Below are positions 6,489-24,436 of a DNA stretch of 64,000 bases, in pieces. Below the pieces are notes generated by a model that saw nothing but the letters and a program-made list of their open reading frames with translations, was not told the origin of the DNA and searched no databases. The DNA lies in the NCBI GenBank assembly GCA_014687725.1, contig GCA_014687725.1_4094.1. One strand, written 5' to 3'. Positions within the stretch are counted from its first letter, which is position 1. The number at the start of each line of letters is the position of its first letter. The position numbers and the translations under genes are program-made. This stretch comes from a phage.

Positions 6489-6492
6489 TCTA

Positions 6493-6521: not shown

Positions 6522-6583
6522 ACTTACATCAAGACGAGAACGTCACTAACCCATAGGGTGCACAAATGTAGCTGTCTAATATT

Positions 6584-6614: not shown

Positions 6615-6819
6615 AATTTGCGTAAAGTAGTATAATTCTATGCAGTTGGTTAGACGAAAGGTTATGATTAGTAGTGGAAGTGTATAAAAATTTTCATGGT
6701 GTGGTGATCCGCACATATGGGGATGAATATGTCGTGTCGTATGGATTGGAAAAAGTAAGAACAAGTAATATACTTGTCGCGTTACAGTACTATAGTATTT
6801 TTATAATGAGGTTAAAATA

Positions 6820-7077
6820 ATGGCTGTAGGATTCACGAAAGATGGGGCCGAGCAAGACGAGATTAACGCAGTGATTCAGGCCGCTGTTAACCACGCTAGA
6901 ACGCAAATTAACGCACAAATAGAATCACTGATACATTGCCTCGACTGCGGCGATATAATCCCTGAGAAACGACGCCAGGCCGTTAAGGGATGTAAGTACT
7001 GCATAACTTGCCAGGAGGATCATGATAGTACTTTTAAACGTCCCCCGCGTAATTGTTGGCATAGATCTATGAGATAA
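6820..7077 (+). CDS. DksA/TraR-family C4 zinc-finger protein
   Basis: CLDCGDIIPEKRRQAVKGCKYC matches the TraR/DksA zinc-finger signature (CxxC...GxxIPxxRRxA...CxxC). Confidence 0.75.
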   Translation: MAVGFTKDGAEQDEINAVIQAAVNHARTQINAQIESLIHCLDCGDIIPEKRRQAVKGCKYCITCQEDHDSTFKRPPRNCWHRSMR

Positions 7078-7083
7078 AAAGTA

Positions 7084-7111
7084 TTGACAGTACTGAAAGA
7101 TAGTGTATAAT
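7084..7111 (+). promoter_or_regulatory. sigma70-like promoter
   Basis: TTGACA 7084-7089, 16-nt spacer, TATAAT 7106-7111. Confidence 0.5.
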
Positions 7112-7140
7112 ATTTTATATCTTAACTGAGGATTGAAATC

Positions 7141-7497
7141 ATGGGAATACAACATATCACGCGTACTACTGACAATGGCGAGATCACTGGCTATCAAGTA
7201 CAGGGCAAAGTAGCACAATTGCAGTACTGGTTTGTTAAACGTGGAATCATTGCACCGGATCTTGATTATGACCGTGTAGCGTTTATTGATTCTCTTTATG
7301 TTGATCCTGATAGTCGGGGCAATGGTGAAGGTAACGAATTAATGAATGCCTTTATTGATGCCGCCGATGATTCAGATTGTATCATTTTAGAATGCGATAC
7401 GGGAGAAGATAACGCCTTTAATCTTAAAGAATGGTACGAAGGTTTCGGATTCGAGGTACTGATCGATAGTGAATATCCTATCATGATTTTATCATAG
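7141..7497 (+). CDS. GNAT-family acetyltransferase-like protein (118 aa)
   Basis: VDPDSRGNGEGNELMNAF resembles the acetyl-CoA-binding R/QxxGxG/A loop; family call tentative. Confidence 0.6.
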   Translation: MGIQHITRTTDNGEITGYQVQGKVAQLQYWFVKRGIIAPDLDYDRVAFIDSLYVDPDSRGNGEGNELMNAFIDAADDSDCIILECDTGEDNAFNLKEWYEGFGFEVLIDSEYPIMILS

Positions 7498-7575
7498 TAC
7501 TTGCATTTAGTTTTCAGTACTGTTATAGTACTTACATCAAGGGGAAACATCTTCCCCTACTAAGAGGAAATAAAA

Positions 7576-7764
7576 ATGGAAAACTTATCAAGTATTTTAG
7601 TACAAGATGATTTCGGTAATCCTGGAAGTGCTATCATTGTTCGGGGTAATAAAGCAACATTTGTTATTGCTGGTGGACCTGTACAGCGTAGCATTAAAAA
7701 TAATGCTGTTACCATTAATAATGTACGCTATCGCTTAGATAAAGAATTGATTCATAAACTTTAA
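7576..7764 (+). CDS. hypothetical small protein (62 aa)
   Basis: ATG with SD AAGAGGAA behind class I cassette. Confidence 0.65.
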   Translation: MENLSSILVQDDFGNPGSAIIVRGNKATFVIAGGPVQRSIKNNAVTINNVRYRLDKELIHKL

Positions 7765-7848
7765 AAAGTATTTGACAATAGATTATAGTACTGTATAATA
7801 AGTTACATGAAGGGGTGAAATGATTCTCCCCACTAAGAGGAAAGAAAA

Positions 7849-8061
7849 ATGCAAGGTCAACTAATCGTTCGTAAATGGTCTGATACTAACGAAAAACCGT
7901 GGGATGTACAATACATCGGACCGGATGGGGTATCACGTTATCAGCCTGGCGTAACGCATAGTACTGAGCAATTCGCAAACGCTCACCGCGAACGCCTGTT
8001 AGAATCCATGAAACAGGGATTCTGTGAAAAATTCATTCAAGATCATTGGCTGAAAGATTAA
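7849..8061 (+). CDS. hypothetical small protein (70 aa)
   Basis: ATG with SD AAGAGGAA behind class I cassette. Confidence 0.7.
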   Translation: MQGQLIVRKWSDTNEKPWDVQYIGPDGVSRYQPGVTHSTEQFANAHRERLLESMKQGFCEKFIQDHWLKD

Positions 8062-8078
8062 TATAAGGAGTACAGCTT

Positions 8079-8171
8079 ATGCAAATGAATCCGATGATTA
8101 TTGTTTTAGCTGTACTTATGATCATTCATGCAATAGTAGAAGTATTAACGCAATCAGGAGTAATAAAATGA
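8079..8171 (+). CDS. 30-aa hydrophobic peptide
   Basis: ATG 8 nt after SD AAGGAG; MQMNPMIIVLAVLMIIHAIVEVL...; below track cut-off. Confidence 0.45.
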   Translation: MQMNPMIIVLAVLMIIHAIVEVLTQSGVIK

Positions 8172-8341
8172 TTCAAGTAGAATTATCAGTACTGAAAGAT
8201 CTGTTTTATCGGTTAGGTACTACTGGCGAGTATCCTAAAAGTGATACCGCAAAACTTTTTGTATCACTCGACTTATGGCAACGCGAACAATTAGTAATGT
8301 CCTGGCGTAAAGGTAAAGCAGATAGCGAGGTGAAAGCATGA
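8168..8341 (+). CDS. hypothetical small protein (57 aa)
   Basis: ATGA overlap with upstream stop; below track cut-off. Confidence 0.5.
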   Translation: MIQVELSVLKDLFYRLGTTGEYPKSDTAKLFVSLDLWQREQLVMSWRKGKADSEVKA

Positions 8342-8487
8342 AAGAATTCTTATTCGAAGTAGTGTTTCAAGGTGTCGGTAGTAACCAACTGATTCGCTCA
8401 AGTGGTTACAATGTTAACCAGGCATGGAATAACATTAAACAAATGTACCCGAACGCTATCACCTATCGCAACCCGAAACAAGTTTAA
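8338..8487 (+). CDS. hypothetical small protein (49 aa)
   Basis: ATGA overlap with upstream stop; followed by R1 terminator. Confidence 0.5.
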   Translation: MKEFLFEVVFQGVGSNQLIRSSGYNVNQAWNNIKQMYPNAITYRNPKQV

Positions 8488-8494
8488 AAATAAT

Positions 8495-8585
8495 TGAAAA
8501 AGGGATTGACTCCGGTCAGTCCCTTTGCTATTATATACGCATAGAAACAAATCAGCCCACAGGGTGCATAAATGTATCTATTGTT
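8495..8585 (+). repeat. R1 terminator-promoter cassette, copy B
   Basis: A-run + hairpin GGGATTGACTCCGGTCAGTCCC 8502-8523 + T-run; TTGACT 8506-8511, 17-nt spacer, TATTAT 8529-8534; 3' box ..AGCCCACAGGGTGCATAAATGTATCTATTG. Confidence 0.6.
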
Positions 8586-8812
8586 TGCTGGTGGCTAGTA
8601 CTATCAAGTACTGAAAACTATTTTTAAAAAAGTACTTGCATTGTACTTAGAATCAAGTATAATGTTTTACATCAGGACGGGGAACGAAACAAGTAACCCC
8701 GTTAAGTAGTCCAGGAGTAAGACATAAGAAAACCTCCCCTGATAAAATAGTTTGACAATAGAAAGTAAACGAGTATAATACTTACATCAACCACTGATAA
8801 GGAAACATTAAA

Positions 8813-9088
8813 ATGCGGATTCTACTGACAGCTAACGAAATCGAACAAGTACTGACTACTAACCTGGAAGACTGGAAACGTGAAGCAGATATCCAGGCGG
8901 TTCAACGGCTTAACGATGAGTTAACGCCGGATGACTTAAGCAAGATTGTAGATCCTCAATTCTACGAAGATATCCACGACACCGCGTTAAGCGTCGAGGA
9001 TGTACTAGATAAGCACTACATTGATATTGATTTGCAGGTTTACGGTCGTAAAAACTTTATCACTATTCACGACATTTACAATAATTAA
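8813..9088 (+). CDS. hypothetical protein (91 aa)
   Basis: ATG with SD AAGGAA; two promoters upstream. Confidence 0.7.
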   Translation: MRILLTANEIEQVLTTNLEDWKREADIQAVQRLNDELTPDDLSKIVDPQFYEDIHDTALSVEDVLDKHYIDIDLQVYGRKNFITIHDIYNN

Positions 9089-9174
9089 GTATTGACAAAG
9101 TATCTTAGTACTGTATAATAGTTTACATCGAGAGGGGGAATGGTTCCCCTCCTAACAAAGAGAGAGAAATAAAA

Positions 9175-9357
9175 ATGGCTAAATGCACTATCTGTAAGAA
9201 AGAAATCGTATTAGTTCCAAGTGCCCGTGAACGTGCCGCTCGGTTCGGTGGCAAACCGTCAGACTATACAAAAATGTTTACTGTCCATGCAGCTTGCCAG
9301 GTAGCAAAACGTTCACAAGAAAGCGTAGAATTAATGCGTAAACTTTCCAAAAAATAA
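9175..9357 (+). CDS. hypothetical small protein (60 aa), Cys-containing
   Basis: ATG with SD AGAGAGA behind class I cassette. Confidence 0.7.
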   Translation: MAKCTICKKEIVLVPSARERAARFGGKPSDYTKMFTVHAACQVAKRSQESVELMRKLSKK

Positions 9358-9445
9358 GTATTGACAAAGTATCTTAGTACTGTATAATAGTTTACATCAA
9401 GTGAGGGGAAACGGTTCCCCTCCTAACAAAGAGAGAGAAATAAAA

Positions 9446-9769
9446 ATGGCTATGATCCTTGCCCAGAAAGTAGAACTGAAAATTGTAACCTCCTTTGACA
9501 TTAAAGTTAATCGGTGGACTGATTCACACGGCAATACTTACCACTCTTGCTACGTGTCTGCGTTAATTGGTGATCGTTGGGAAGACCTGGGACATGAAAC
9601 CTTTACATACGGTTACGGCACACAAGGCGAATACACGGGCTTGGAGATCATTAAAGAAACCGTTATAGGTTTCAACCCGAAAGAAACAGTTATTCACCGC
9701 ATCGAGGAAGAGATCAACAAAGAAATAACAGTTCGATACTACGATGTAAAACGTAAGAAAGATATGTAA
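9446..9769 (+). CDS. hypothetical protein (107 aa)
   Basis: ATG 9446; track start 9401 is a GTG inside the leader hairpin; cassette 9355-9445 duplicates 9084-9174. Confidence 0.7.
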   Translation: MAMILAQKVELKIVTSFDIKVNRWTDSHGNTYHSCYVSALIGDRWEDLGHETFTYGYGTQGEYTGLEIIKETVIGFNPKETVIHRIEEEINKEITVRYYDVKRKKDM

Positions 9770-9855
9770 TAGAATCCATTTAAAGTACTATTTGACATTG
9801 CCCAGATAGTACTTTATAATAGACTCTAACTTGTAGTACTAACTCAACTAATAGG

Positions 9856-10260
9856 ATGTATACCATGATTACTAAATTCTACGCTACCCGTGAAGCTGCC
9901 CGTATTGTTGCACGCGAGGAAGGAGCAGCATTTAAAGACATGGGCAAAGATGCACCGAAAGGCCAACGCTGGGCCGTACAGTTCAAAGAGATCTCTGATA
10001 TTGTGAATTCACCTGAGCCAGTACTAACAGCAGCAGAACTAAAACGAGCGGATTTACTGGCGTCAATACTTGATGCACAAGATGAGTTTATCGCTGATTC
10101 TGATATCAAAGTACAGACAAACCATACCGCTTGGACTCACGCGGATCACCTGGCAAACCTGAAGCGTCCAAGTGAACTGGTACGCAACCAGAAAGAGATC
10201 CGACACGACCGTAAGGGTAATCGTGTAACAGTATACAGTAAACGCCGCCAGGTTATCTAA
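9856..10260 (+). CDS. hypothetical protein (134 aa)
   Basis: Track ORF; alternative ATG at 9865; GC-richer than neighbours. Confidence 0.7.
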   Translation: MYTMITKFYATREAARIVAREEGAAFKDMGKDAPKGQRWAVQFKEISDIVNSPEPVLTAAELKRADLLASILDAQDEFIADSDIKVQTNHTAWTHADHLANLKRPSELVRNQKEIRHDRKGNRVTVYSKRRQVI

Positions 10261-10282
10261 TAACTTGCAGTACTAACAACAC

Positions 10283-10308
10283 GGCGGGATCAGTTCCCGC
10301 CTTTTTTA
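10283..10308 (+). terminator. rho-independent terminator
   Basis: stem GGCGGGA/TCCCGCC + T6. Confidence 0.8.
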
Positions 10309-10321
10309 TAGGACAAACAAA

Positions 10322-10576
10322 ATGATTAAGGTTCAACTATATAAAGATAATATCTTGCGGGTACACTATAAAGCCCCTCAGAGAATCATCACAAAGGCCG
10401 TACAGCTTGCTAATGAGTTTATTAATGGTAACCTATTACCAAGGAAGTTAAGCAACGGAAAACTGCGTGTAATCGATGTAGACACTAACAACAGAATAGT
10501 AATTGAGAACACAGGAAAGATAAACCTATATGAACACCAACAATATAATAAGAAAATAAAACTAATATCACGTTGA
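10322..10576 (+). CDS. hypothetical protein (84 aa)
   Basis: ATG with SD AGGA. Confidence 0.6.
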   Translation: MIKVQLYKDNILRVHYKAPQRIITKAVQLANEFINGNLLPRKLSNGKLRVIDVDTNNRIVIENTGKINLYEHQQYNKKIKLISR

Positions 10577-10629
10577 CAGTACTCAATTGTTTTAGTACTA
10601 TGTACATATACCAACACGGGAGAAACAAA

Positions 10630-10848
10630 ATGAAATTATCTAAAATCGAAAAGAAAACTATTGATGAAGCAGTTAAGCACGGTTATACCTTTCGTAATGA
10701 TTCACATTTTACCAATTTTCAACAAGGGTATCGTACTATTAAAAAACTCATTGACAAAGGTTTATTAGTTGAAGTCAATAACGGCAATGGTATTGAGTAT
10801 CAACCAACACAAGACGCATTTTATTTTAAGAAATATAATATTATCTAA
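10630..10848 (+). CDS. hypothetical protein (72 aa)
   Basis: ATG 10630 with SD GGGAGAAA; track start 10573 is the TTG of the promoter -35. Confidence 0.65.
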   Translation: MKLSKIEKKTIDEAVKHGYTFRNDSHFTNFQQGYRTIKKLIDKGLLVEVNNGNGIEYQPTQDAFYFKKYNII

Positions 10849-10905
10849 TTGACAGTACTCAAATGTTTTAGTACTATATGTACATACCAACACGGGGAAA
10901 ACAAA

Positions 10906-11148
10906 ATGATTACTTTAGAAAAACGTATCAAAGAAACTACATCGCTGGTGGAACTGTTAACAGTACTGAAATGCCGTACTACTCGGTTTAGTACACCGGA
11001 CTTTATTAATATGGTTGATGTTAACGGTCGTTATCGCATTGCAGTAGAACAAGGAACAGCGAAAGTATTCAGTACTAAAAACACTAAGGAAGTGATTCAT
11101 GCTGTAAGTGTTAAAAAAGTAGTTGCCATTGATAGTAAAGTACTGTAA
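10906..11148 (+). CDS. hypothetical protein (80 aa)
   Basis: ATG 10906; promoter/leader block 10849-10905 duplicates 10563-10629. Confidence 0.65.
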   Translation: MITLEKRIKETTSLVELLTVLKCRTTRFSTPDFINMVDVNGRYRIAVEQGTAKVFSTKNTKEVIHAVSVKKVVAIDSKVL

Positions 11149-11179
11149 GATAGTTTCATTAACTCAAGGAGAACATGCA

Positions 11180-11764
11180 ATGCGTAATTATACTAAATTC
11201 ATCCGTACCCTGTCAGAAATGGAAACCAACAAAGAGATCCTTTCAGCTTGTCGGTTAGCTGGTCTGGAGATCATCGGTGCGGGTTCTTCCCGTATTGTAT
11301 TCGCTTTAAATGATCGGTTAGTGATCAAGGTCGCGAATTGTGATGCGGGTGTAGAACAAAATGAAACTGAATGTAAGGTATGGAATTTTTTAGATTATGA
11401 CCGCCCTCAATTGAAACAGTACTTTGCAAAGGTGCATATGCATTTATGCGATCCTGATAATATGTTTATCGTTATGGATCGGTTGAGTACTGCAAGTAAA
11501 GGCAGTGTAAAGCACGTAAACGCGTGCAATGAATTAAAGTACAATATTAAACGTAATGCCATTGAACGCCAGCACCGCTTTGCTGATGCACTACAACACG
11601 TTGATGATACATTATCAACACTAACGATAAGAGATATCAGAAAACAGAATATCGGCCAGGATCGTAATGGCCTTATTAAAGTACTTGATTACGGTTTAAC
11701 CCGCAATATCTGGAATCAGTACTATAAAAAGCGTGATGTAGAAGCAAGTAAGGTAACACGATAA
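11180..11764 (+). CDS. protein kinase-like protein (eukaryote-type kinase fold)
   Basis: Gly-rich loop GAGSSRIVF, VIKVA lysine, catalytic-loop-like IRDIRKQN, DFG-like DYG; ATG with SD AAGGAG. Confidence 0.75.
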   Translation: MRNYTKFIRTLSEMETNKEILSACRLAGLEIIGAGSSRIVFALNDRLVIKVANCDAGVEQNETECKVWNFLDYDRPQLKQYFAKVHMHLCDPDNMFIVMDRLSTASKGSVKHVNACNELKYNIKRNAIERQHRFADALQHVDDTLSTLTIRDIRKQNIGQDRNGLIKVLDYGLTRNIWNQYYKKRDVEASKVTR

Positions 11765-11771
11765 AAAAGAT

Positions 11772-11862
11772 TAAAAAAGGGATTGACTCCGGTCAGTCCC
11801 TTTGCTATTATATATTCATTGAGAGATAACTCACTGACCCATAGGGTGCGGAAGTGTATCTA
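11772..11862 (+). repeat. R1 terminator-promoter cassette, copy C
   Basis: hairpin 11779-11800; TTGACT 11783-11788, TATTAT 11806-11811. Confidence 0.6.
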
Positions 11863-11984
11863 TTATATAAGTATTCAGTACTGAAAACTATTTTAAAAAA
11901 GTACTTGCAATGTACTTAGAATCAAGTATAATGTTTTACATAGAGAGGGGGAAATGGTTCTCCCTGGTAATAAGGAATAAAATC

Positions 11985-12206
11985 ATGACTACAATGACTT
12001 GCATTTACGCTTCCAATCTTCTGAATGATGCGGCCTTTAATGTTGATTCAGAATATCAATGTTATCGGGATGAAAATAAAAAAGTTTTTGTAGTTGATAA
12101 TAATGGTTTCCATATTGAATTACAATCCGGTTTCACTGGTGTTGATGGTAAATCAGTGTGGGGCGTACAGGATGATAAAGGCACATATCATTTTAAACGT
12201 AATTAA
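11985..12206 (+). CDS. hypothetical small protein (73 aa)
   Basis: ATG 11985 with SD AAGGAA; track start 11910 is inside promoter/leader. Confidence 0.7.
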   Translation: MTTMTCIYASNLLNDAAFNVDSEYQCYRDENKKVFVVDNNGFHIELQSGFTGVDGKSVWGVQDDKGTYHFKRN

Positions 12207-12290
12207 GTATTGACAAAGTATATCAGTACTGTATAATAGTTTACATCAAGGGGAGAATAGTTCTCCCCGATACTAAAAGGAAACAAAATT

Positions 12291-12563
12291 ATGTCCAGCT
12301 ACTCCGCTACTATGATCATTAAAGATATGAACGGTAATCCTACTTCTGCTGGTGGATCATTTGGAAACATTAATTTAGATGGTCGGTTATCCATGCAATC
12401 AGCCATCGATGCAGCGAAAGAAGTTTTTAAGAATGAATGTACTGTTAGTAAGCTGGATTATATGGGATTCGCTATCGAGAAAACTAATCGTTTTGTGAAC
12501 TACAAAAATCCACTGATGATTGATACTAACCTGAAAGCTAACGAAGTGGGGTACTTATTATGA
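12291..12563 (+). CDS. hypothetical protein (90 aa)
   Basis: ATG with SD AAAGGAA behind class I cassette. Confidence 0.7.
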   Translation: MSSYSATMIIKDMNGNPTSAGGSFGNINLDGRLSMQSAIDAAKEVFKNECTVSKLDYMGFAIEKTNRFVNYKNPLMIDTNLKANEVGYLL

Positions 12564-12751
12564 CAGTAGAAGAAGTTAAAAAAGTACTGGCAGTACTACG
12601 CTATCATAATCATTGCAAGGTGAAGAATGATCCTGATTATGTTGATTCATCCCTGGAGGAAGACACATTAAACGCAATAAGCCATATGCAAACATTAGCA
12701 AAGCGTATGACCGAAAAGAATAGACCGGACTATATCGGAAATAAAATTTAA
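12560..12751 (+). CDS. hypothetical small protein (63 aa)
   Basis: ATGA overlap with upstream stop. Confidence 0.6.
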   Translation: MTVEEVKKVLAVLRYHNHCKVKNDPDYVDSSLEEDTLNAISHMQTLAKRMTEKNRPDYIGNKI

Positions 12752-12837
12752 AAAGTACTTGCATTGTAGTTAGATTAACGTATAATGTTTTACATAGAGC
12801 GGGGGAACTATTCCCCCGCCAGTCCAGGAGATACACC

Positions 12838-13101
12838 ATGAACACTATCGAAATCACTATCAATGCACACGTATACGACAACGTAGTACTGCAAACTACT
12901 ATGACCGCTAATGATACCAGTACTTTGCGGAATACTGTTATTAGTGCCGTATGTGCCGCTATCGGTGATGTCGCCCTGGAAAATGCAGAACACATCAACA
13001 ACGGTTTCACTATGTGCAAACGTGATAACGCAAAACATATCATCGTAGAAGGTTACGGCGGTGTAGAATATAATCTTTATATGAAAAAAGTACTTGCATA
13101 A
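12838..13101 (+). CDS. hypothetical protein (87 aa)
   Basis: ATG with SD AGGAGA behind class I cassette. Confidence 0.7.
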   Translation: MNTIEITINAHVYDNVVLQTTMTANDTSTLRNTVISAVCAAIGDVALENAEHINNGFTMCKRDNAKHIIVEGYGGVEYNLYMKKVLA

Positions 13102-13168
13102 TAACTAAAACAAAGTATAATGTTTTGCATAGGGGGAGATATCCTCCCCCACTAAAAGGAGTAATAAA

Positions 13169-13393
13169 ATGGCTAACTTTGATGAACTGATGCGGGAAGT
13201 AGCTAACCTGGCAGAAGAGAAGAAATCATTCGATTCTATCTATAACACCGCTCACCGTGATTCAGTACTGGCATGTACTCAGGATCAAAAAGATGAACTA
13301 ATCGCCACATATCATGAAGCATGGAAGTACTACCGCCAATGGGAGAAAGAAGAAAGCGAGTCTACCATCAACGGCATCAATAATCTAATCTAA
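13169..13393 (+). CDS. hypothetical small protein (74 aa)
   Basis: ATG with SD AAAGGAG behind class I cassette. Confidence 0.7.
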   Translation: MANFDELMREVANLAEEKKSFDSIYNTAHRDSVLACTQDQKDELIATYHEAWKYYRQWEKEESESTINGINNLI

Positions 13394-13469
13394 AAGTTTT
13401 ATTTCAGTACTATTGACATAGCTTGATAGTACTGATGTAATAACTTTACTAACTACAAGGGGAAACATA

Positions 13470-13727
13470 ATGGAACAGTTCACACAATATCGGGTAAATC
13501 CTCAAGCTATGGCCTACGTAGAAGACCATAAAACGTTACCAGTACTAACACCAATTAAAGGCCATATCTATCGTGCAATGTCATGGAATACGGCCCAGGA
13601 TGGATATACTACCGCTGGCGTGGGTATGTATTGCGGGAATGGTGAATGGTTTGATCCAAATAATCCGGTAGCCATTGACAGTACTGAAAAAATGAAATGG
13701 GCCGACTACATCGAAGATATTTCATAA
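13470..13727 (+). CDS. hypothetical protein (85 aa)
   Basis: ATG with SD AAGGGGAA behind class II promoter (TTGACA 13413-13418). Confidence 0.7.
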   Translation: MEQFTQYRVNPQAMAYVEDHKTLPVLTPIKGHIYRAMSWNTAQDGYTTAGVGMYCGNGEWFDPNNPVAIDSTEKMKWADYIEDIS

Positions 13728-13816
13728 AACTATTTGACAGTACTAACCAGTAATGTATAATGTTTTACATAGAGCGGGGGAATAGTTCTCCCGCCAATAG
13801 TTTGGAGTAAAACATT

Positions 13817-14017
13817 ATGTCTATCGCTATCGCCCTGGTTGAAGTACTGAAAGAAGCTAAAGCCAACCTTATCGATGTACAGATTAAGGAATTACAAAAT
13901 GGTTTAATCGGCTGTACTTGTACCGCTGGTGGAGCGGCAGACTATCGGGAATTCGAATCACTTGAATCGATGGTCCGTTATCTTACCATGATCGTAGAAG
14001 ATTGGAGAATCATCTAA
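13817..14017 (+). CDS. hypothetical small protein (66 aa)
   Basis: ATG with SD TTGGAG behind class I cassette. Confidence 0.7.
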   Translation: MSIAIALVEVLKEAKANLIDVQIKELQNGLIGCTCTAGGAADYREFESLESMVRYLTMIVEDWRII

Positions 14018-14028
14018 CAAAAAAGAAT

Positions 14029-14115
14029 AAAAAAAGGGATTGACTCCGGTCAGTCCCTTTGCTATTATATACGCATAGACAAAAACTAGCCCACTGGGTG
14101 CAGGAGTGTATCTAA
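14029..14115 (+). repeat. R1 terminator-promoter cassette, copy D
   Basis: hairpin 14036-14057; TTGACT 14040-14045, TATTAT 14063-14068. Confidence 0.6.
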
Positions 14116-14263
14116 AATATATAGTTAATAACGGTGAGTAACTATCTGCTGGTGGGGTGAAAACTATTAATAAAAAAAGTATTGACAAAGTATATCAGTA
14201 CTGCAATAATGTATCTCGTAGGGCGGCAATGGTGCGACGGCCCACAAAGTTAGGAGATTCAAA

Positions 14264-14596
14264 ATGAGTACTTCAATCGCTATCGTTAAAGCTTTCATCC
14301 GTACCAATGTTTCATCTGTATTCATCGACGGTCTGGATCGGGAAGTAGAATACTCAATCATTATCGCACAGACTGCAAACGGTGCTCGGTATATCCTTAA
14401 TGATAGTGAAGCAAATCACTACTACTTCACTAAAGCTACTGGCTTTAAACGCATCGATGCTGACGTAGTATACACTAAGATGAATAAGCTGGTAGACAAG
14501 ATTAACGCGAAAGGTACTATCGATTTACAGTACTGGACCGAAACCGATCCAGAATATGGATCTCACCGCTACCTGAATCCAGGTATTAAAATGTAA
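14264..14596 (+). CDS. hypothetical protein (110 aa)
   Basis: ATG with SD TAGGAGA. Confidence 0.7.
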   Translation: MSTSIAIVKAFIRTNVSSVFIDGLDREVEYSIIIAQTANGARYILNDSEANHYYFTKATGFKRIDADVVYTKMNKLVDKINAKGTIDLQYWTETDPEYGSHRYLNPGIKM

Positions 14597-14685
14597 AAAG
14601 TACTTGCATAGTACTTAGAATCAAGTATAATGTTTTACATAGAGAGGGGGAAATGGTTCTCCCTCCTAAATTAAGGAGTTTTATC

Positions 14686-15087
14686 ATGACCTTCTCAATC
14701 AATTCCTTCGCTGACGTTTTAGTACTGGCTCGGACTTTCGGTAAAGATGCACTGGAGTACGCTGTAAGTAATGGTACTATCCAACCGGAACAGTGCCGCA
14801 TCATTGGAAACTGCAAACGTTGGGCGGTATCCAATACTATTGCACTGGAAAACTTCCACGATGGCAACAATGAATATTCTGTTGATGTAGTATTCGAAGC
14901 CGTTGATCTCGGCGGTATCTATAATACTAACCTGAATGATGTGCGTATCGTTCGCACGGGGTTCGGTGCTTATGATGTATCTATTCGTGAAGCTATGAAC
15001 ACCGGATACATTAGCAAGGACTTACTTGCTCACATCATGCAGCTGTGTACGGAACGTAACGAAGCACGCACTATCTTAGGACTGTAA
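14686..15087 (+). CDS. hypothetical protein (133 aa)
   Basis: ATG 14686 with SD AAGGAG; track start 14653 lies in leader hairpin. Confidence 0.7.
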   Translation: MTFSINSFADVLVLARTFGKDALEYAVSNGTIQPEQCRIIGNCKRWAVSNTIALENFHDGNNEYSVDVVFEAVDLGGIYNTNLNDVRIVRTGFGAYDVSIREAMNTGYISKDLLAHIMQLCTERNEARTILGL

Positions 15088-15155
15088 GCGTTACACATCA
15101 CCAAACATCATAGGCCGCCTTGTAGCGGCCTTAACTATATCAGGAGGGCATACAT

Positions 15156-15365
15156 ATGTTCTATACAGTATACAGCGTTCTAGGTACTATTGCAGGCGTA
15201 CATGATAACGTCAATGATGCTATGCGTACAGTACTGCAACAGGTTCCACTAAAGCCTAAGACCATTAAGCAGATGACAGCACGACTAACCAGGGCGACCG
15301 ATGGCGTGGAAGTATGGCAGGACTACGGGGATACACAGATAATCGTTAGCGTAACGAAGGATTAA
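15156..15365 (+). CDS. hypothetical small protein (69 aa)
   Basis: ATG with SD AGGAGGG. Confidence 0.65.
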   Translation: MFYTVYSVLGTIAGVHDNVNDAMRTVLQQVPLKPKTIKQMTARLTRATDGVEVWQDYGDTQIIVSVTKD

Positions 15366-15393
15366 TGCGTAAAGGGATCTAGTACTGATTCAG

Positions 15394-15459
15394 AAAAAAG
15401 TCAAGGCGTTTTTAAAATTATGCGTTAAAAAAATGCATAGGTAATCCCTTGACTTTTTT
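15394..15459. repeat. 13-bp perfect inverted repeat flanking a 40-nt AT-rich core
   Basis: AAAAAAGTCAAGG 15394-15406 / CCTTGACTTTTTT 15447-15459; in the 250-bp gene-free region before the array. Confidence 0.5.
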
Positions 15460-15556
15460 GAAATAAAAGGGATTGGACTATGGCAAAATGCGTAGGGGGC
15501 TAAAGGGCGGGTAACCTTAGCGACTTCGATAAAGGGGTATTACGAATAAAATGTTA

Positions 15557-15585
15557 TTGACTTTTTATATGAATCGTATAAAATA
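15557..15585 (+). promoter_or_regulatory. promoter at head of paralog array
   Basis: TTGACT 15557-15562, ~16-nt spacer, TAAAAT -10; then SD AAGGGAG. Confidence 0.5.
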
Positions 15586-15614
15586 TGATTGATATTAATT
15601 TTAAGGGAGTCCCT

Positions 15615-15812
15615 ATGCGTATTTTAACTAAAGAACAGCACCACGAAAGACTTATCAATAACATGGCTATGATAATGTATAAGTCCCATGACCGTGGTAT
15701 TGCCTATAAGCGTGAATTAATTATGGCACTATTCATTGGAACTAACTTTCAGGAAAGGTATGTCAACGATTGGATTTGGTATTTAATTGAAGATATAACG
15801 AGTAAACTATGA
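15615..15812 (+). CDS. family A paralog (LGTNYQ-motif small protein)
   Basis: motif FIGTNFQER; ATG 15615 with SD AAGGGAG (track start 15585). Confidence 0.65.
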   Translation: MRILTKEQHHERLINNMAMIMYKSHDRGIAYKRELIMALFIGTNFQERYVNDWIWYLIEDITSKL

Positions 15813-16009
15813 AAATGCGTATTTTAAATAAAGAAGAATATCAATCACTGTTACGTAAAAACTTCACAAAGATTTATAATACAGACACACACGTAGAACG
15901 AATGGAGTTATACCTTTTGATTACATTGGGAACAAACTATCAGGGTAGATGGGTGTGGCAATATATGGATACATTGAAAAATAAAATATTGTCCACGAGG
16001 AAACAATGA
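15809..16009 (+). CDS. family A paralog
   Basis: motif LGTNYQGR; ATGA stop/start overlap. Confidence 0.65.
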   Translation: MKMRILNKEEYQSLLRKNFTKIYNTDTHVERMELYLLITLGTNYQGRWVWQYMDTLKNKILSTRKQ

Positions 16010-16215
16010 AAACTATAACACGAACCCAATCATACGGTCTTATCTTGAAATACATGGACTTAATGGTGGATATCAGCAAAGACCTGCCTAAAACTGAAAT
16101 TGAAGTTGCAAGAGCAGAGATCCGCATGTTGGCTGTACTGAACACAAACCATCAGGAAGATTATGTTGAAGAATGGATTCGATTTTTAATAGAAGATATT
16201 AAGAGTAAACTATGA
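16006..16215 (+). CDS. family A paralog
   Basis: motif LNTNHQED; ATGA overlap. Confidence 0.65.
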   Translation: MKTITRTQSYGLILKYMDLMVDISKDLPKTEIEVARAEIRMLAVLNTNHQEDYVEEWIRFLIEDIKSKL

Positions 16216-16427
16216 TTATTATAGAAAACTCATATCAATATACTAAACGCATCGCTGCCAGACAACTTGAAATCCTCATAATATACGAAGAGACTTCTGA
16301 TTTAAACTTAGCCGAGGTATTGGAAAATGAAATACTTTTGGGTGCATTCTTGGGAACAGACTATCAGGAGTATTATGAGGAAAAGTATTTGTCATCTCTA
16401 GAGAAATACATCAGGAGCAAATTATGA
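16212..16427 (+). CDS. family A paralog
   Basis: motif LGTDYQEY; ATGA overlap. Confidence 0.65.
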   Translation: MIIIENSYQYTKRIAARQLEILIIYEETSDLNLAEVLENEILLGAFLGTDYQEYYEEKYLSSLEKYIRSKL

Positions 16428-16636
16428 TTATATTAACACCAGAAGAATATAAGAAACGTTTCAATTCTGTCCAGACTGAAATATTACTTATATACCTTTC
16501 AAATGCAGACCTTAACTTATCAAGGGCAATGGAGAAGGATTTACTTATGGGTGCATTTTTGGATACAGACTTTCAGGAGTATTATGTAGGGAAATACTTA
16601 ATTGAACTTCAGAACTACATTAAGAGTAAACTATGA
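16424..16636 (+). CDS. family A paralog
   Basis: motif LDTDFQEY; ATGA overlap. Confidence 0.65.
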   Translation: MIILTPEEYKKRFNSVQTEILLIYLSNADLNLSRAMEKDLLMGAFLDTDFQEYYVGKYLIELQNYIKSKL

Positions 16637-16860
16637 AACATTTAAGTAATATTGAGAAGATGAGAATTATCATTGATGCATTAAACAAATACGATACCCT
16701 TTTACAAATAAAAGGTTTAACTCGATTGGAACACAAGATAAACACCACCGATGTACGCATGTTGGCTGTACTGGGGACGAACTTTCAGGAAGAGTATGTT
16801 GTTGCACACATAGTTGCACTCACTAATTACATAATGGACAAATGTAATGAACATCATTAA
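16633..16860 (+). CDS. family A paralog
   Basis: motif LGTNFQEE; ATGA overlap. Confidence 0.65.
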   Translation: MKHLSNIEKMRIIIDALNKYDTLLQIKGLTRLEHKINTTDVRMLAVLGTNFQEEYVVAHIVALTNYIMDKCNEHH

Positions 16861-17071
16861 TAACTTTGAATACGAGGCCCGTGCTAAGAGTGCCAGAAAA
16901 AAAGAGAACACCATTTACTTCACTATGATGTACTTACAATGGACTGAAATTGAAGAAAAGGTTGCTGAAGTATGGATGTTGGAATTCATGGGGACGCAGT
17001 ATCAGAATAGGTTTGCGGGTGAGTATATCAATGTTCTTATGAAACAAATAGAAAGAAAGGAAAAGAACTAA
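16847..17071 (+). CDS. family A paralog
   Basis: motif MGTQYQNR. Confidence 0.65.
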   Translation: MNIINNFEYEARAKSARKKENTIYFTMMYLQWTEIEEKVAEVWMLEFMGTQYQNRFAGEYINVLMKQIERKEKN

Positions 17072-17229
17072 TGGTTTTCATTAACATATCTGACCAACTC
17101 GATACTAAACTAGAAGTCGAGCAGAGTGAGGGATGGATGCTGTACTTTCTTGGAACTTCTCATCAGAATTTTTATATCCATGAACACATAGTTGCACTCA
17201 AGAATTACATTATGGACAAATGCAAATGA
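17071..17229 (+). CDS. family A paralog, N-terminally shortened copy (52 aa)
   Basis: motif LGTSHQNF; C-terminus HIVALKNYIMDKC repeats that of the 16633-16860 copy; TAATG overlap; below track cut-off. Confidence 0.4.
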   Translation: MVFINISDQLDTKLEVEQSEGWMLYFLGTSHQNFYIHEHIVALKNYIMDKCK

Positions 17230-17483
17230 AATACTTAACACAAGATGAATATTCACTTAGAATTCGAAAGCTCACCCCAGAAGCAAGAGTAATCTACGAT
17301 GACCCCACCCTTACATGGAACCAAATGCGAGCTAAAGTTAATGAGCTATGGTTGCTGTACTTTATGGGGACTCAATATCAAGATAAGTTTTGCAAAGAAT
17401 TTGTCGATCAATTAATGAATGTTATACAGGATAAACTAGATGAATATTGGCTCGCAAAACATGAAGACTTTATCAGGAGTTGA
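17220..17483 (+). CDS. family A paralog
   Basis: motif MGTQYQDK. Confidence 0.65.
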   Translation: MQMKYLTQDEYSLRIRKLTPEARVIYDDPTLTWNQMRAKVNELWLLYFMGTQYQDKFCKEFVDQLMNVIQDKLDEYWLAKHEDFIRS

Positions 17484-17712
17484 GTATCAAACTGCCCTCT
17501 TCTCTCTTATTAACACCCTTAGAAAAAACAATGCATTACATGGTGCACCTGAAGTGGATGTTATCAACGGTGATGTTTATCTTATGAAATTCATTGGAAC
17601 AAACTATCAAGATCTGTTCATTCAACGATACTTGGCAGCATTAAGAAACCAAATCCAATATAAAACCCGTCAAGCCCAAAGAGAATGGAAGAGACAATGC
17701 GACAAAGACTAA
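17461..17712 (+). CDS. family A paralog
   Basis: motif IGTNYQDL; start uncertain (track 17440). Confidence 0.6.
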   Translation: MKTLSGVEYQTALFSLINTLRKNNALHGAPEVDVINGDVYLMKFIGTNYQDLFIQRYLAALRNQIQYKTRQAQREWKRQCDKD

Positions 17713-17945
17713 ATCACAAAATGTATTGTAAACTATTACAAACACTGGCACAGAAACACTATGACACCGTATCTGAAATATTACCCTATGATATCATGCG
17801 TTTAATTCATAGTGAGGCCGAGATGCTTGTACTGATGAGAGGGACTGATAAAACAGCAATAGCCAGATCGATTGAGCAATATATTGATGCACACTGCCAA
17901 CACATGAGAACCGAAATCTGGAGGAAAGAGAATGATAATCCTTAA
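17685..17945 (+). CDS. family A paralog (divergent)
   Basis: motif region MRGTDKTA; tandem position. Confidence 0.55.
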   Translation: MEETMRQRLNHKMYCKLLQTLAQKHYDTVSEILPYDIMRLIHSEAEMLVLMRGTDKTAIARSIEQYIDAHCQHMRTEIWRKENDNP

Positions 17946-18147
17946 TGAGTATCAGTATCATTGGAGGTTACAAACTATCAAATCAAAAGTGTATAGTATT
18001 GTGTTAAACAAATCTATTGCACAAGAGGACAAATGTGTTATAATAGCTGAAATGAAGTTGGGTGTATTCGTAGGGACAAACTATCAAAACATCTACACTG
18101 ACGTATTATTAAGTTCCTTACGTAACAAGGTGGTATCCAAAATATGA
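17932..18147 (+). CDS. family A paralog
   Basis: motif VGTNYQNI. Confidence 0.65.
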   Translation: MIILNEYQYHWRLQTIKSKVYSIVLNKSIAQEDKCVIIAEMKLGVFVGTNYQNIYTDVLLSSLRNKVVSKI

Positions 18148-18362
18148 GAAATTTACAAGGCTTTGAATACATCAGACTCCTGAAAACATGTGGAAGCAGA
18201 AGGAGAATGATATCAAGCGATAAGAGCATCCAAGCTAACCTTAAGCACGCACTAGTAACTGAACTCTATGTAGGTGCACTCTTAGGCACAAACTATCAAC
18301 AAATGTATGTAGATCTATGGATTGACGCTCTACAGAAAGAGGTTAAAAGTAAATGCAAATGA
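18144..18362 (+). CDS. family A paralog
   Basis: motif LGTNYQQM; ATGA overlap. Confidence 0.65.
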   Translation: MRNLQGFEYIRLLKTCGSRRRMISSDKSIQANLKHALVTELYVGALLGTNYQQMYVDLWIDALQKEVKSKCK

Positions 18363-18571
18363 TTAATTTAAGTAAAGACGAATTTTATGTTATACTGGCG
18401 AAAACTTATCCAGCACGTAAGGCCGTTTATGATAGTCACATTATTGAACCCTCAAAGAAGTTGATTTTAGTAAATGAGATAAAGATGCTTTCAGTCTTAG
18501 GAACAAACTATCAAGAGAATGCTGTACTGATGTTAATTGATGCCCTCCAGCGAGAGGTTAAACGTAAATGA
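18353..18571 (+). CDS. family A paralog
   Basis: motif LGTNYQEN. Confidence 0.65.
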   Translation: MQMINLSKDEFYVILAKTYPARKAVYDSHIIEPSKKLILVNEIKMLSVLGTNYQENAVLMLIDALQREVKRK

Positions 18572-18798
18572 AAATGATTCATTTAACTTACCATGAATAT
18601 CAAAAACGTTTAAATGCATCCAGAGATATAAGGATTCAAATATTCAATAACAAAAGATTGAAGCCTGATATCAGAAAAATCAAAATTATAGAAGCAGAGT
18701 TATGCAACTTTCTAGGGACCAACTATCAGGCAGGTAAGGTAAAAAACTATCTTAGAGAACTAATGAATAGTATTGAAAATAAATGTAAGGGTAATTAA
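18568..18798 (+). CDS. family A paralog
   Basis: motif LGTNYQAG; ATGA overlap. Confidence 0.65.
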   Translation: MKMIHLTYHEYQKRLNASRDIRIQIFNNKRLKPDIRKIKIIEAELCNFLGTNYQAGKVKNYLRELMNSIENKCKGN

Positions 18799-18799
18799 C

Positions 18800-19039
18800 A
18801 TGAAAATGATTAAATTATCTCAAGCAAAATATAAAGAACGCCTGGTGAAAATTGCACCTGGACTTAATGAAATCCATCACGGAGAAGTCATTAAACACGG
18901 AAATAAGATGATTATGAAACTTGAGTTAAAGGTGGGTGCATTCATAGGAACAAACTATCAGGAGTATTATGTAGATGAATACATAATCGCACTTAAGAGA
19001 TACATTGGAAGAAAACTATATCTACAAACTAAAGAATAG
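18800..19039 (+). CDS. family A paralog
   Basis: motif IGTNYQEY; ATG 18800 right after upstream TAA (track TTG 18773). Confidence 0.6.
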   Translation: MKMIKLSQAKYKERLVKIAPGLNEIHHGEVIKHGNKMIMKLELKVGAFIGTNYQEYYVDEYIIALKRYIGRKLYLQTKE

Positions 19040-19068
19040 TATTGAAAATAAATGTGAGGTTGATGAAC

Positions 19069-19332
19069 ATGCAAATGATCAATTTAAGTAAAGATGAATA
19101 TACCGAGCGTATGACAAAAATTACGCACAAACGTAATACAATCTATCACAACCCAGAAATTCAACACAGTAAGAAAATGATTATGATGCGTGAGTTAAAG
19201 ATGGGTGTATTCTTAGGAACAAACTATCAAGATACAGAAGTAAATCGCTTAATCGCGGAGTTACTACTGGAAATCAGAGGTAAGCTGTACTTTCATCAAA
19301 TGACCCAACCACTGAGGTGTACTAAGAAATGA
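19069..19332 (+). CDS. family A paralog
   Basis: motif LGTNYQDT; start uncertain (track TTG 19042). Confidence 0.6.
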   Translation: MQMINLSKDEYTERMTKITHKRNTIYHNPEIQHSKKMIMMRELKMGVFLGTNYQDTEVNRLIAELLLEIRGKLYFHQMTQPLRCTKK

Positions 19333-19544
19333 TCAACATCACATTGCAAGAAAGATTCATCCGAATCAACTATGCAATTACCAAATTAGATGCTACTATA
19401 GGATTCCAAAGTCTACCATACAAAACCAGATTGTTATTAGAGTGTGAAGCTAAGTTGGGTGTACTGTTAGGGACGCAACACCAACAACGATATGTGGAAA
19501 TCTGGATTGACCTTTTAACCCAAAATATATATGAGAGAATGTAA
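19329..19544 (+). CDS. family A paralog
   Basis: motif LGTQHQQR; ATGA overlap. Confidence 0.65.
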   Translation: MINITLQERFIRINYAITKLDATIGFQSLPYKTRLLLECEAKLGVLLGTQHQQRYVEIWIDLLTQNIYERM

Positions 19545-19775
19545 ATGCAAAATGAAATGATATACTTAACGAATGAAGAATTTCAAGAGAAGATGTTAAA
19601 AACCAAAAACATTACTCTTAAGTTCGTTCCAAATCAATCAATATCTGAAGTATCTGCAAATGTATTGTTTCAGAAGCTACCATACGTTCTTGGAACTGAT
19701 AAACAAGAATTTATGGTTCAAAATATGATTGAACATCTTATAATGAGTATTAAGGAAAAAGTTAATGCAAAATGA
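19545..19775 (+). CDS. family A paralog (long-N variant)
   Basis: motif LGTDKQEF. Confidence 0.65.
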   Translation: MQNEMIYLTNEEFQEKMLKTKNITLKFVPNQSISEVSANVLFQKLPYVLGTDKQEFMVQNMIEHLIMSIKEKVNAK

Positions 19776-20019
19776 AATGATATACTTAACCTATAATGAA
19801 TACGTCGAGAGATTAGTTCGTGCCAAGAGATATACCAATAAACGTCCAATTGACCTAAACCAAACCCCAGCAGAAAGGAGTGCAGAAGTATTATTCCAAT
19901 CACTACCATATCTTCTGGGAACTGATAGACAAGAGGAATATGTTGCACGTATGATTAGATATCTTAAAATCACTATTAAGGAAAAAGTAAATGCAAATGA
20001 AATACTTAACAGACGATGA
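19765..20019 (+). CDS. family A paralog (long-N variant)
   Basis: motif LGTDRQEE; first 33 nt identical to the 19545 copy. Confidence 0.65.
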   Translation: MQNEMIYLTYNEYVERLVRAKRYTNKRPIDLNQTPAERSAEVLFQSLPYLLGTDRQEEYVARMIRYLKITIKEKVNANEILNRR

Positions 20020-23726: not shown

Positions 23727-24084
23727 AAAAGTAATATTTCTTTTGAATACCAGAAGTGAATTGTATACAGAGTTAAAAGAGATTAATGCATTTTATCAGA
23801 ATTTTGTAATCCAAGAGATCAGTGATTTAATTACAGATGCATTATTTGAATTATCGGAGAAATACAAAGGTTCAGAGTTCAGTGTTAAGAATGTTATTCG
23901 TCCAAGTGCAAGGAAAATTATATTATCACATTTTACATTTGACAATAAAGATTTATTCAGTCATAATCCAAGTACAGCTTTATATTTTATTCCTGATTCA
24001 GACAAAAATCATCCTATTCATTACGGATGGATTTTGTCATATATAGTACAAGGAAAGGAGTATCCTATTAAATGGAAAGATTAG
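23692..24084 (+). CDS. hypothetical protein (130 aa) with family A-like N-terminal segment
   Basis: FLLNTRSELYTELKEI resembles family A core; longer C-terminal extension. Confidence 0.55.
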   Translation: MNMNPEIVQDLKKVIFLLNTRSELYTELKEINAFYQNFVIQEISDLITDALFELSEKYKGSEFSVKNVIRPSARKIILSHFTFDNKDLFSHNPSTALYFIPDSDKNHPIHYGWILSYIVQGKEYPIKWKD

Positions 24085-24232
24085 GGCGATTAGATTATTA
24101 CACAATTAATACAAATTATTTGTTGCGTAATATAAAATCCGATTACAAAATATGGATAAAGAACAGAGATAGCATGTGTTATGAATTTTATTTAGATTAT
24201 GCTATCAAACGATTTTTAAGAGAAGAACATTA

Positions 24233-24436
24233 ATGCAAAAGATTAATACGATAACATTAAATGCATTACAGGATTCATTATTAGATAGTATTAAGATGTA
24301 TTACAATATACATTTGAAGGGTGGTATTGATAATTACGATTATTATTTGAGTTTAATTACATTTGAGCACCTTTCAGTACAGGACAGGATTTTACATCCT
24401 ACAAATCCTAGGTATCCATCGATAGGTAAATTATGA
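24233..24436 (+). CDS. hypothetical small protein (67 aa)
   Basis: Track ORF after 148-bp gap. Confidence 0.5.
   Translation: MQKINTITLNALQDSLLDSIKMYYNIHLKGGIDNYDYYLSLITFEHLSVQDRILHPTNPRYPSIGKL

Follow-up and report, generated by a model that had tools for sequence, protein, structure and literature searches.

What purpose is served by 250 bp of gene-free DNA at the head of a long array of small phage genes is the question raised by the locus described here (positions 15366 to 15614 of the window, the whole stretch of 64,000 nucleotides that was analyzed). A sequence-only reading of the window had drawn attention to an inverted repeat, repeated words, and a promoter in this gap and had proposed either a control region for the whole 38-kb locus, namely, an operator or attenuator, or a recombination/replication site. 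From comparison with related phages, the region is better read as a terminal-repeat boundary and probable packaging cut site. The bond between positions 15517 and 15518 (…GGGTAACCT/TAGCG…; a slash marks the cut throughout) probably represents, at roughly 80% on the sequence comparisons set out below, the inner boundary of a direct terminal repeat of approximately 20.7 kb and a physical end of the virion DNA. With similarly high confidence, the 250-bp gap is a junction of two functionally distinct halves, 15366 to 15517 and 15518 to 15614.

Phage identity and gene layout

Using positions 14000 to 17000 as a megablast query, 42 phage records were identified, all of which are jumbo myoviruses of the PBECO4/121Q/G17 group (genus Asteriusvirus). 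The window derives from an Asteriusvirus jumbo coliphage sharing 99.3% identity with G17 and Sharanji. With the same query, records of approximately 366 to 384 kb were matched twice as often as records of approximately 348 kb, suggesting that the terminal repeat is included in the longer ones.

Nearly all open reading frames in the window are on the plus strand, and the genes in the terminal repeat and in the array are all directed inward from the left end of the genome. The terminal repeat is dense with small genes bearing their own promoter and terminator cassettes, and the array is a long series of overlapping genes encoding proteins of approximately 65 to 75 amino acids. The space between the two is indeed gene free, as had been claimed, since G17, CRJP21, fEgEco12, and other annotated relatives carry no feature between the last gene of the repeat, which encodes a 69-amino-acid (aa) protein, and the array. 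In the annotation of G17 and CRJP21, the first array gene starts at the ATG at 15615 and is preceded by the ribosome-binding site AAGGGAG. A homolog of the 69-aa gene is located directly upstream of the terminus module (Table 1) in each lineage examined, and the homologous proteins in other jumbo phages share 29 to 37% identity with it. No terminus module was found after the homolog of the 69-aa gene in RaK2; the RaK2 terminus, if it exists, would lie elsewhere, or this homolog would be a paralog.

Table 1. Features of the repeat boundary and the start of the array, in window coordinates
Feature	Position	Strand	Remarks
69-aa protein gene, function unassigned (phrog_17833)	15156-15365	+	Last gene of terminal repeat
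Terminus module, non-coding (putative)	15366-15517	.	Last 152 bp of direct terminal repeat; placed by the G17 repeat end and the ends of relatives
Block 0, AAAGGGATCTAGTACT	15371-15386	.	Directly past stop codon; related AAGGATTTAGTACT-type sequences in other lineages
Perfect 13-bp inverted repeat, AAAAAAGTCAAGG and CCTTGACTTTTTT	15394-15406 and 15447-15459	.	AT-rich spacer of 40 nt; inner hairpin
Block A, AAAATGCATAGGTAATCCCTT	15430-15450	.	21/21 identical in Pectobacterium phage CBB
Block B, TTGGACTATG	15473-15482	.	GACTATG at -43 to -37
Block C and cut site, AAAGGGCGGGTAACCT/TAGCG	15502-15522	.	Packaged DNA end between 15517 and 15518
Array leader, first 97 bp of unique DNA	15518-15614	+	Block D, -35, -10, ribosome-binding site
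Block D, AAAGGGGTATTAC	15531-15543		On unique side, in array leader
-35 box, TTGACT	15557-15562	+	
-10 box, TAAAAT	15579-15584	+	Ends 30 nt before ATG
Ribosome-binding site, AAGGGAG	15603-15609	+	
First small-gene array gene (65 aa, phrog_4148)	15615-15812	+	Next genes overlap head to tail

The repeat boundary and genome end in Asteriusvirus

The linear G17 record contains a 20,668-bp terminal repeat with no mismatches between its copies, which was determined from read coverage (PMC6563267); its boundary is 152 nt past the 69-aa gene and maps to 15517/15518. The terminus of the window phage was transferred from relatives in which the junction is either identical over 301 nt or homologous. Over these 301 nt the junction is 100% identical to those of G17, Sharanji, slurp01, and SHEFM2K, and in window coordinates the sequence across the end reads …GGGCGGGTAACCT/TAGCGACTTCG….

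Other members of the genus place the end in the same column. PhageTerm gave a repeat of 20,668 bp for Sharanji (PMC11895373). In CRJP21, which has a 20,152-bp repeat with no mismatches, the terminal 100 nt are the same as those of the window up to 15517, and E9.1 and BF17, the repeat of the latter having been determined with PhageTerm (PMC10059673), have record or repeat ends whose last 100 nt are identical to those before 15517. The 20,993-bp repeat of fEgEco12, established with PhageTerm and restriction digests (PMC13070987), and the annotated repeat of vB_Ec-M-J (positions 1 to 21525) both end 152 nt after the 69-aa gene, at the column of 15517, while in WPEC3 and WPEC5 the offset of the 69-aa gene from the record start equals that of G17. 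In total, at least nine Asteriusvirus records or papers give the end at the 15517/15518 column, a count in which some later records were possibly oriented on G17 and would not be independent determinations. The JP4 record is differently arranged and was left out of the comparison of ends. Across the sister phages together with Klebsiella phage fENko-Kae01 (Kae01) and CBB, the repeat ranges from 19.7 to 22.5 kb in length, with the landmarks at its start and stop being shared.

Two determinations are discordant. For ELP-22, PhageTerm returned the shared left end and a right end located 128 nt earlier, at window position 15389, so that the record ends directly after block 0. For UE-S1, the repeat was reported as 8.3 kb, a value doubted by the authors of the fEgEco12 study (PMC13070987). 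With 15366 to 15517 as a putative DNA-processing site, the earlier suggestion of a recombination/replication site pointed the right way in its general sense; that the region borders a repeat and forms the end of the packaged genome had gone unrecognized.

Ends in other lineages

The same end column was identified in three phages outside Asteriusvirus. The PhageTerm-annotated repeat of Kae01 (positions 1 to 19736) ends 145 nt after the homolog of the 69-aa gene, at …CATGCCT/TAGCCACC (TAGCC), and the CBB repeat, inferred from read depth (PMC5259590), ends past an unannotated homolog of the same gene, at …AACGCT/TAGCGAGG (TAGCG). The third, Erwinia phage Kaldavass, has a record that starts exactly at …TAATGCT/.

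Using the CBB module as a blastn query, matches were found in unannotated DNA of GAP32, Xanthomonas phages XbC2 and XaC1, Serratia phage BF, Yersinia phages fHe-Yen9-03 and fHe-Yen9-04, and six Erwinia pEa_SNUABM phages; for the majority of these records, the distance between the record start and the module is 13 to 25 kb. The terminus module is also present on several metagenomic contigs of 355 to 371 kb. When IMG/VR was searched with the pattern GGACTATG-N30-34-CCTTAGC, nearly all of the matches were due to chance, with three jumbo contigs being useful; the pattern CCTTCCGCTATATC likewise returned nearly all chance matches in IMG/VR and zero useful contigs. Both were outperformed in contig scans by a pattern built on blocks A and B.

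Conserved blocks are phased to the cut

To examine sequence conservation around the end, an ungapped alignment of 18 lineages was anchored at the cut and extended from -100 to +20. The bases CT/TAG were invariant in all 18 lineages, and the heptamer CCTTAGC, which spans the cut, occurs a single time in the 64-kb window. Without gaps, the window shares 61% identity with CBB and 51% with Kae01, whereas random offsets averaged 27% and reached at most 43 to 45%. Conservation was confined to a set of blocks (Table 1), with the sequence between them diverging freely among lineages.

The blocks hold fixed distances from the cut. The core of block A, AGGTAATCC, occupies -79 to -71, and the end of the block is 67 nt from the cut in the genomes of Asteriusvirus, CBB-like phages, XbC2, Kaldavass, and GAP32; in every lineage possessing block B, its final G is 35 nt from the cut. 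Block A is absent from Turkey5, JNE01, and A4, and block B is absent from A4 and GAP32, where a short inverted repeat is found in its place. Thus, neither block is strictly essential. Block 0 includes the hexamer AGTACT, whose specificity is doubtful because the word is abundant genome-wide. AGTACT was also considered as a terminus signal in its own right, as it lies near both termini in all lineages, and was rejected as it is the commonest hexamer of the window (233 copies).

On the unique side of the cut, conservation reaches about +26 (GGGGTATTAC, block D). Natural variants are informative here. In Salmonella SD phages, a deletion has removed approximately 15536 to 15610, including the promoter, and in PBECO4 and BF17 an insertion of approximately 490 bp carrying an extra gene is found at about 15536, at the same AAAGG word. 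In both cases everything up to about +18 is intact and only the sequence downstream is altered; judged by these variants, block D is dispensable.

The left terminus carries a mirrored TAGCG

The left end of the genome is outside the window, about 5.2 kb ahead of its first base. The sequences across it read …TTCAGTACTGATATGCCACTA/AGTAGGCAG in Asteriusvirus, …CCCCCTTCCGCTA/TATCTTC in Kae01, and …CCCCTTCCGCTA/TATCCGT in CBB. When the opposite strand is read, the left termini of G17, Kae01, and CBB each show TAGTG or TAGCG as the first bases beyond the packaged DNA, mirroring the /TAGCG of the right end. As homology links the left sites among themselves and the right sites among themselves, the mirrored motif counts as roughly one coincidence of 5 nt. 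It is no more than suggestive of one enzyme that would cut both boundaries in opposite orientations. In a k-mer comparison of the left and right termini in three lineages, the only sequences in common were AGTACT words and, at the cut, the 5-nt TAGCG, and the candidate idea of recognition blocks common to both termini was rejected, as nothing consistent was obtained.

The inverted repeat and repeated words

The 13-bp inverted repeat with its AT-rich spacer was reproduced as first described: its arms are 100% complementary, the spacer is 40 nt, and it was unmatched in any of 300 local shuffles of 120 nt. The nested repeat said to be enclosed by it was also recovered, as a 9-bp inner hairpin at 15418 to 15440. 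The region folds better than shuffled sequences, with z scores of -4.5 as DNA and -3.4 as RNA. The element TTGACTTTTT, missed in the first reading, has three copies in the 64 kb, all of which are in this region and two of which are the arms of the inverted repeat. A search of Rfam 15 returned no family at threshold, the sole match being to bglG-cis-reg at 28 bits against a threshold of 80 bits.

An inverted repeat of at least 10 bp is present upstream of block A in 5 of 15 lineages (the window, fEgEco12, A4, Kae01, and CBB). Those of the window and fEgEco12 are versions of one sequence; those of A4, Kae01, and CBB are unrelated to these and to each other, and the remaining lineages of the 15 have no inverted repeat beyond chance. 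A conserved structure was accordingly rejected, significance being reached in only 5 of 15 lineages and with differing sequences. The 13-bp inverted repeat is, by this comparison, a lineage-specific addition outside the conserved core and is evolutionarily labile. Candidate roles include a terminator-like insulator and a site for a dimeric protein.

A hairpin terminator particular to the lineage, possibly bidirectional, would stop transcripts of the repeat genes before the genome end or the array, and this role is an unlikely one. The outer 13-bp and inner 9-bp stems are predicted to combine into an extended hairpin with little interruption, with an A-run on one side and a U-run on the other (in RNA, A6-GUCAAGG…CCUUGAC-U6), no other terminator is found downstream of the 69-aa gene, and elsewhere in the repeat hairpins containing TTGACT double as terminator-promoter cassettes. 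Against these points, the repeat differs from a rho-independent terminator in its 40-nt spacer, its AT-rich stem, and a U-run that is itself paired within the stem; it was called neither by a terminator scan of the window nor by ARNOLD in the annotation of G17. The equivalents in Kae01, A4, and CBB are without a U-tract, and most lineages are without such a repeat altogether. Termination would be compatible with a packaging cut site as an additional function. The TTGACT within the right arm (15449) was also considered as a second promoter and rejected: only ATTGGA is found 16 to 18 nt downstream, with no acceptable -10 box, and the pair was not listed by the promoter scan.

The repeated words were recounted. 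Instead of the five AAAGGG words reported, there are four exact copies (15371, 15466, 15502, and 15531), the supposed fifth being TAAGGGAG, the ribosome-binding site. They are strongly clustered, four falling within 166 nt when both strands of the entire 64 kb contain 22, and can be accounted for as parts of blocks 0, C, and D together with a single lineage-specific copy. The three ATGCGT(A) words were confirmed, with ATGCGTA at 15365, 15488, and 15615, and one ATGCGTT was found in addition at 15420; ATGCGT occurs 21 times on the plus strand of the whole window. Block A is represented among the related ATGCRTAGG words.

Clustered direct and inverted words around a 40-nt AT-rich core could also be taken for a replication origin, in which AAAGGG and ATGCRTAGG would serve as iteron-like words alongside the inverted repeat. 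This is the least credible of the explanations considered. Cumulative GC skew climbs at a steady rate across the window and shows no inflection near 15.5 kb, and no initiator gene is adjacent. In addition, these words are components of the cut-phased blocks, and from one lineage to another they change in sequence but not in distance from the cut.

The promoter and leader of the array

The promoter said to launch the array has the form TTGACT-16 nt-TAAAAT, a sigma-70-like match at 10 of 12 consensus positions. In a scan of 2 kb, this pair tied for the top score and was the best on the plus strand. A -35/-10 pair is found at the same place in relatives despite sequence drift, with TTGACT…TAAAAT in Turkey5 and JNE01, TTGACT…TATAAT in EJP2, and TTGACA-17-TATACT in Kae01; the pair is also retained in fEgEco12. 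It is absent in CBB-like phages and, as described above, deleted in SD phages. A promoter that launches the array is therefore plausible, given that a sigma-70-type pair is kept in relatives though the sequence has diverged. From these consensus elements we infer promoter activity, and the host sigma-70-type promoter and ribosome-binding site in 15518 to 15614 would drive the small-gene array, probably early in infection. The array begins where the unique DNA begins; thus, the array promoter is present once per virion genome and the upstream module twice.

The control function originally proposed for the gap was examined against this arrangement. As an operator or attenuator of the array, the region would bind a repressor at the 13-bp repeat and the repeated words, or an RNA hairpin would attenuate entry into the array. 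In its favor, neither the inverted repeat nor the clustering of words is a random feature, the RNA fold has a z score of -3.4, and a consensus promoter lies downstream. Furthermore, 23 nt at 15428 to 15450, which include block A, are 83% complementary to the ribosome-binding site and start of the first array gene (15603 to 15625). This complementarity is not conserved, however, and no Rfam family reached its threshold in the region. The inverted repeat is 98 to 163 nt upstream of the -35 box and has no overlap with the promoter, and it is missing from Turkey5 and JNE01, which retain both promoter and array. The conserved blocks keep their register relative to the cut site, not the promoter, and the module is retained in phages that have lost the promoter (SD), in those with a gene inserted between module and array (PBECO4 and BF17), and in those with different genes downstream (Kae01 and CBB). 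Control of the whole 38-kb locus from this region is consequently very improbable, and that part of the original proposal was set aside.

Proposed mechanism and significance

In the reading favored here, positions 15366 to 15517 would constitute a recognition and cutting module for the packaging nuclease (terminase), with the end-forming cut at 15517/15518. Replicating DNA, either concatemeric or circularized, would contain one copy of the repeat per unit. The nuclease would cut by CGCTA or CACTA at one boundary and by TAGCG at the other, approximately 20.7 kb further on in the next unit, and because the cuts would be set that far into the next unit, each virion would receive the repeat twice. 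Blocks A and B are located within the packaged DNA, 67 and 35 nt from the cut, and would most plausibly position a recognition subunit or an accessory bending protein; from the alignments we infer binding of terminase or an accessory factor to these blocks. Fixed spacing between blocks combined with freely varying sequence between them is the pattern expected of a multipart protein-DNA assembly site.

A more general proposal, to which we assign somewhat less than an even chance, is that a clade of jumbo phages with a T4-like terminase uses one conserved, phased 'ter' site to produce exact ends approximately 20 kb apart. The site would consist of block A at -79, block B at -43, and CT/TAGCG at the cut, with TAGCG mirrored at the other boundary, and the clade would comprise Asteriusvirus, Mimasvirus, Eneladusvirus, the Munch/Kae01 group, and relatives infecting Erwinia and Xanthomonas. 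If this is true, a headful-type motor would have gained site-specific cutting at both ends, and the 152-bp module would be a minimal cis element for studying how very long exact repeats are generated and duplicated. To our knowledge, the generation of such repeats is poorly understood, even in T5 and SPO1.

With the end pinned to one phosphodiester bond and the module keeping base-pair spacing in at least five phage lineages, the architecture is settled at the sequence level. This allows the correct orientation and annotation of many collapsed records of 348 to 352 kb. The compact cis element, from about -90 to +18, could be used in packaging assays, in phage engineering, and for recognizing complete genomes in metagenomes.

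Comparison with known systems

The position of the repeat boundary was already known from GenBank features and several papers. The boundaries given for sister phages (G17, fEgEco12, vB_Ec-M-J, BF17, and Sharanji, and beyond the genus fENko-Kae01 and CBB) fall in identical or homologous sequence at the same end column; unlike the description of blocks given here, these papers and records provide only coordinates and lengths. In the searched texts on sister phages, no description of conserved blocks, fixed spacing, the boundary sequence, or an inverted TAGCG was found, and the phased module with inverted TAGCG at both termini appears to be undescribed.

The literature on this clade is contradictory, with headful packaging assumed from terminase phylogeny in one paper and repeats of approximately 20 kb described in others. 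A T4-like terminase is described in the phAPEC6 and CBB papers (PMC7247149 and PMC5259590), and the large terminase of phAPEC6 is reported as closest to those of T4, RB49, and KVP40 (PMC7247149), from which headful packaging 'without real physical ends' was assumed (PMC7247149). Whereas T4-type headful packaging yields permuted ends, many determinations here give one fixed end at a conserved motif. The end position is identical in many isolates and in several genera, the right end of ELP-22 being discordant, and such a fixed, conserved end argues against the headful inference from phAPEC6 for this clade.

Three systems with defined ends offer partial parallels. The concatemer junction of T7 and T3 contains pac elements and, close to the boundary of the repeat, an inverted repeat able to form a hairpin, and the T7 repeat is 160 bp. 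The present phages resemble T7 and T3 in having exact ends with a direct repeat, an inverted repeat and promoter-like elements near the cut, and a repeat that is duplicated in processing; they differ from T7 in that the terminase is unrelated and the inverted repeat is unconserved across lineages. Lambda cos (cosQ-cosN-cosB) is a multipartite, phased terminase site that generates 12-nt cohesive ends and no terminal repeat. The likeness to cos lies in a cut flanked by one-sided recognition elements, the spacing of which is more important than the intervening sequence. In contrast to lambda, the cuts here are approximately 20.7 kb apart and produce ends bearing a direct repeat of approximately 20 kb, and an IHF-type site was not identified.

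T5 has a long exact terminal repeat with an injection-stop region at the inner end of the repeat. Both T5 and the present phages have a nonpermuted genome, a multikilobase exact repeat of small early genes, and structured noncoding DNA at the inner end of that repeat, and UE-S1 has been classed by PhageTerm as 'long-ended T5 type'. By analogy, the region might act as an injection-stop or pause signal that holds entry until the repeat genes are expressed: the genes of repeat and array all point inward from the left end, the repeat is full of small genes with their own promoter/terminator cassettes, and the structured region is placed exactly at the boundary of repeat and unique DNA. Conservation is tied to the exact cut column, however, and an identical copy terminates the molecule on the right, where a stop signal would have no role, making this explanation highly improbable. 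The repeat here is also twice as long as that of T5, there is no sequence similarity between the two, and the present phages are not known to have nicks or two-step entry. For the packaging cut site favored here, the nearest functional analogs are found in two places, with the exact long repeats of T5 and SPO1 on one side and the multipartite logic of lambda cos on the other.

Variation around the genome end in related phages

The AAAGG(G) word at positions 15531 to 15536, located shortly downstream of the cut that ends the terminal repeat, is the end-point common to two independent natural rearrangements (window positions ~15536 to 15610). In four Salmonella SD phages, ~75 nt are deleted from this word onward, with loss of the promoter of the small-gene array. 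PBECO4 and BF17 carry at the same word an insertion of ~490 bp, which adds a gene for a 121-aa protein together with a promoter for it (TTGACTTTTT).

The termini of ELP-22 (GenBank accession number OR699282.2) were assigned by PhageTerm. Its left end is the common left end, and its right end, …CTAGTACTGAT, is equivalent to window position 15389, 128 nt short of the end found in all other records. This alternative right end could represent a second, minor cut or be an artefact of the software or library.

Putative terminator-promoter cassettes in the terminal repeat

Three near-identical cassettes of ~50 bp each, with the sequence AAAAAGGGATTGACTCCGGTCAGTCCCTTTGCTATTATATA(C/T)…, were identified in the terminal repeat. 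Each forms a hairpin that the G17 annotation lists as a terminator, and the TTGACT −35 box inside the hairpin stem is followed 17 nt later by TATTAT. Located between genes of the repeat, the cassettes look like combined terminator-promoter units. Their left arm is resembled by block B (AAAGGGATTGGACT), a conserved block of the noncoding terminus module.

Cassettes of the terminal repeat, in window coordinates
Feature	Position	Description
Cassette 1	8485-8550	Hairpin with internal TTGACT
Cassette 2	11762-11825	Hairpin with internal TTGACT
Cassette 3	14019-14082	Hairpin with internal TTGACT

Other sequence matches and word bias

Positions 15428 to 15450, which include conserved block A of the module, form an inverted match of 23 nt (83% complementary) with positions 15603 to 15625, spanning the ribosome binding site and start codon of the first array gene; comparison by eye revealed no apparent conservation of this complementarity in the relatives compared. 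Using Rfam, a subthreshold match to bglG-cis-reg was found at positions 15341 to 15477 (score of 28 bits, the gathering threshold of the family being 80; E = 0.016), most likely a chance similarity to the AT-rich hairpin.

Hexamer counts across the whole window identified AGTACT as the most frequent word, with 233 copies against ~21 expected, frequently within CAGTACTG (one copy lies at 15381). As the copies are spread over all three codon phases, the excess is a bias at the DNA level. Density was uneven, with ~6 copies per kb where the window covers the terminal repeat and zero copies in two 4-kb stretches within the small-gene array (16001 to 20000 and 24001 to 28000).

Comparison with the RaK2 group

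A homologue of the 69-aa gene that precedes the terminus module is also present in Klebsiella phage RaK2 (region 261542 to 262348), where it is followed directly by more genes and by no terminus-like module. Any fixed genome end of the RaK2/K64-1 group must therefore be located elsewhere.
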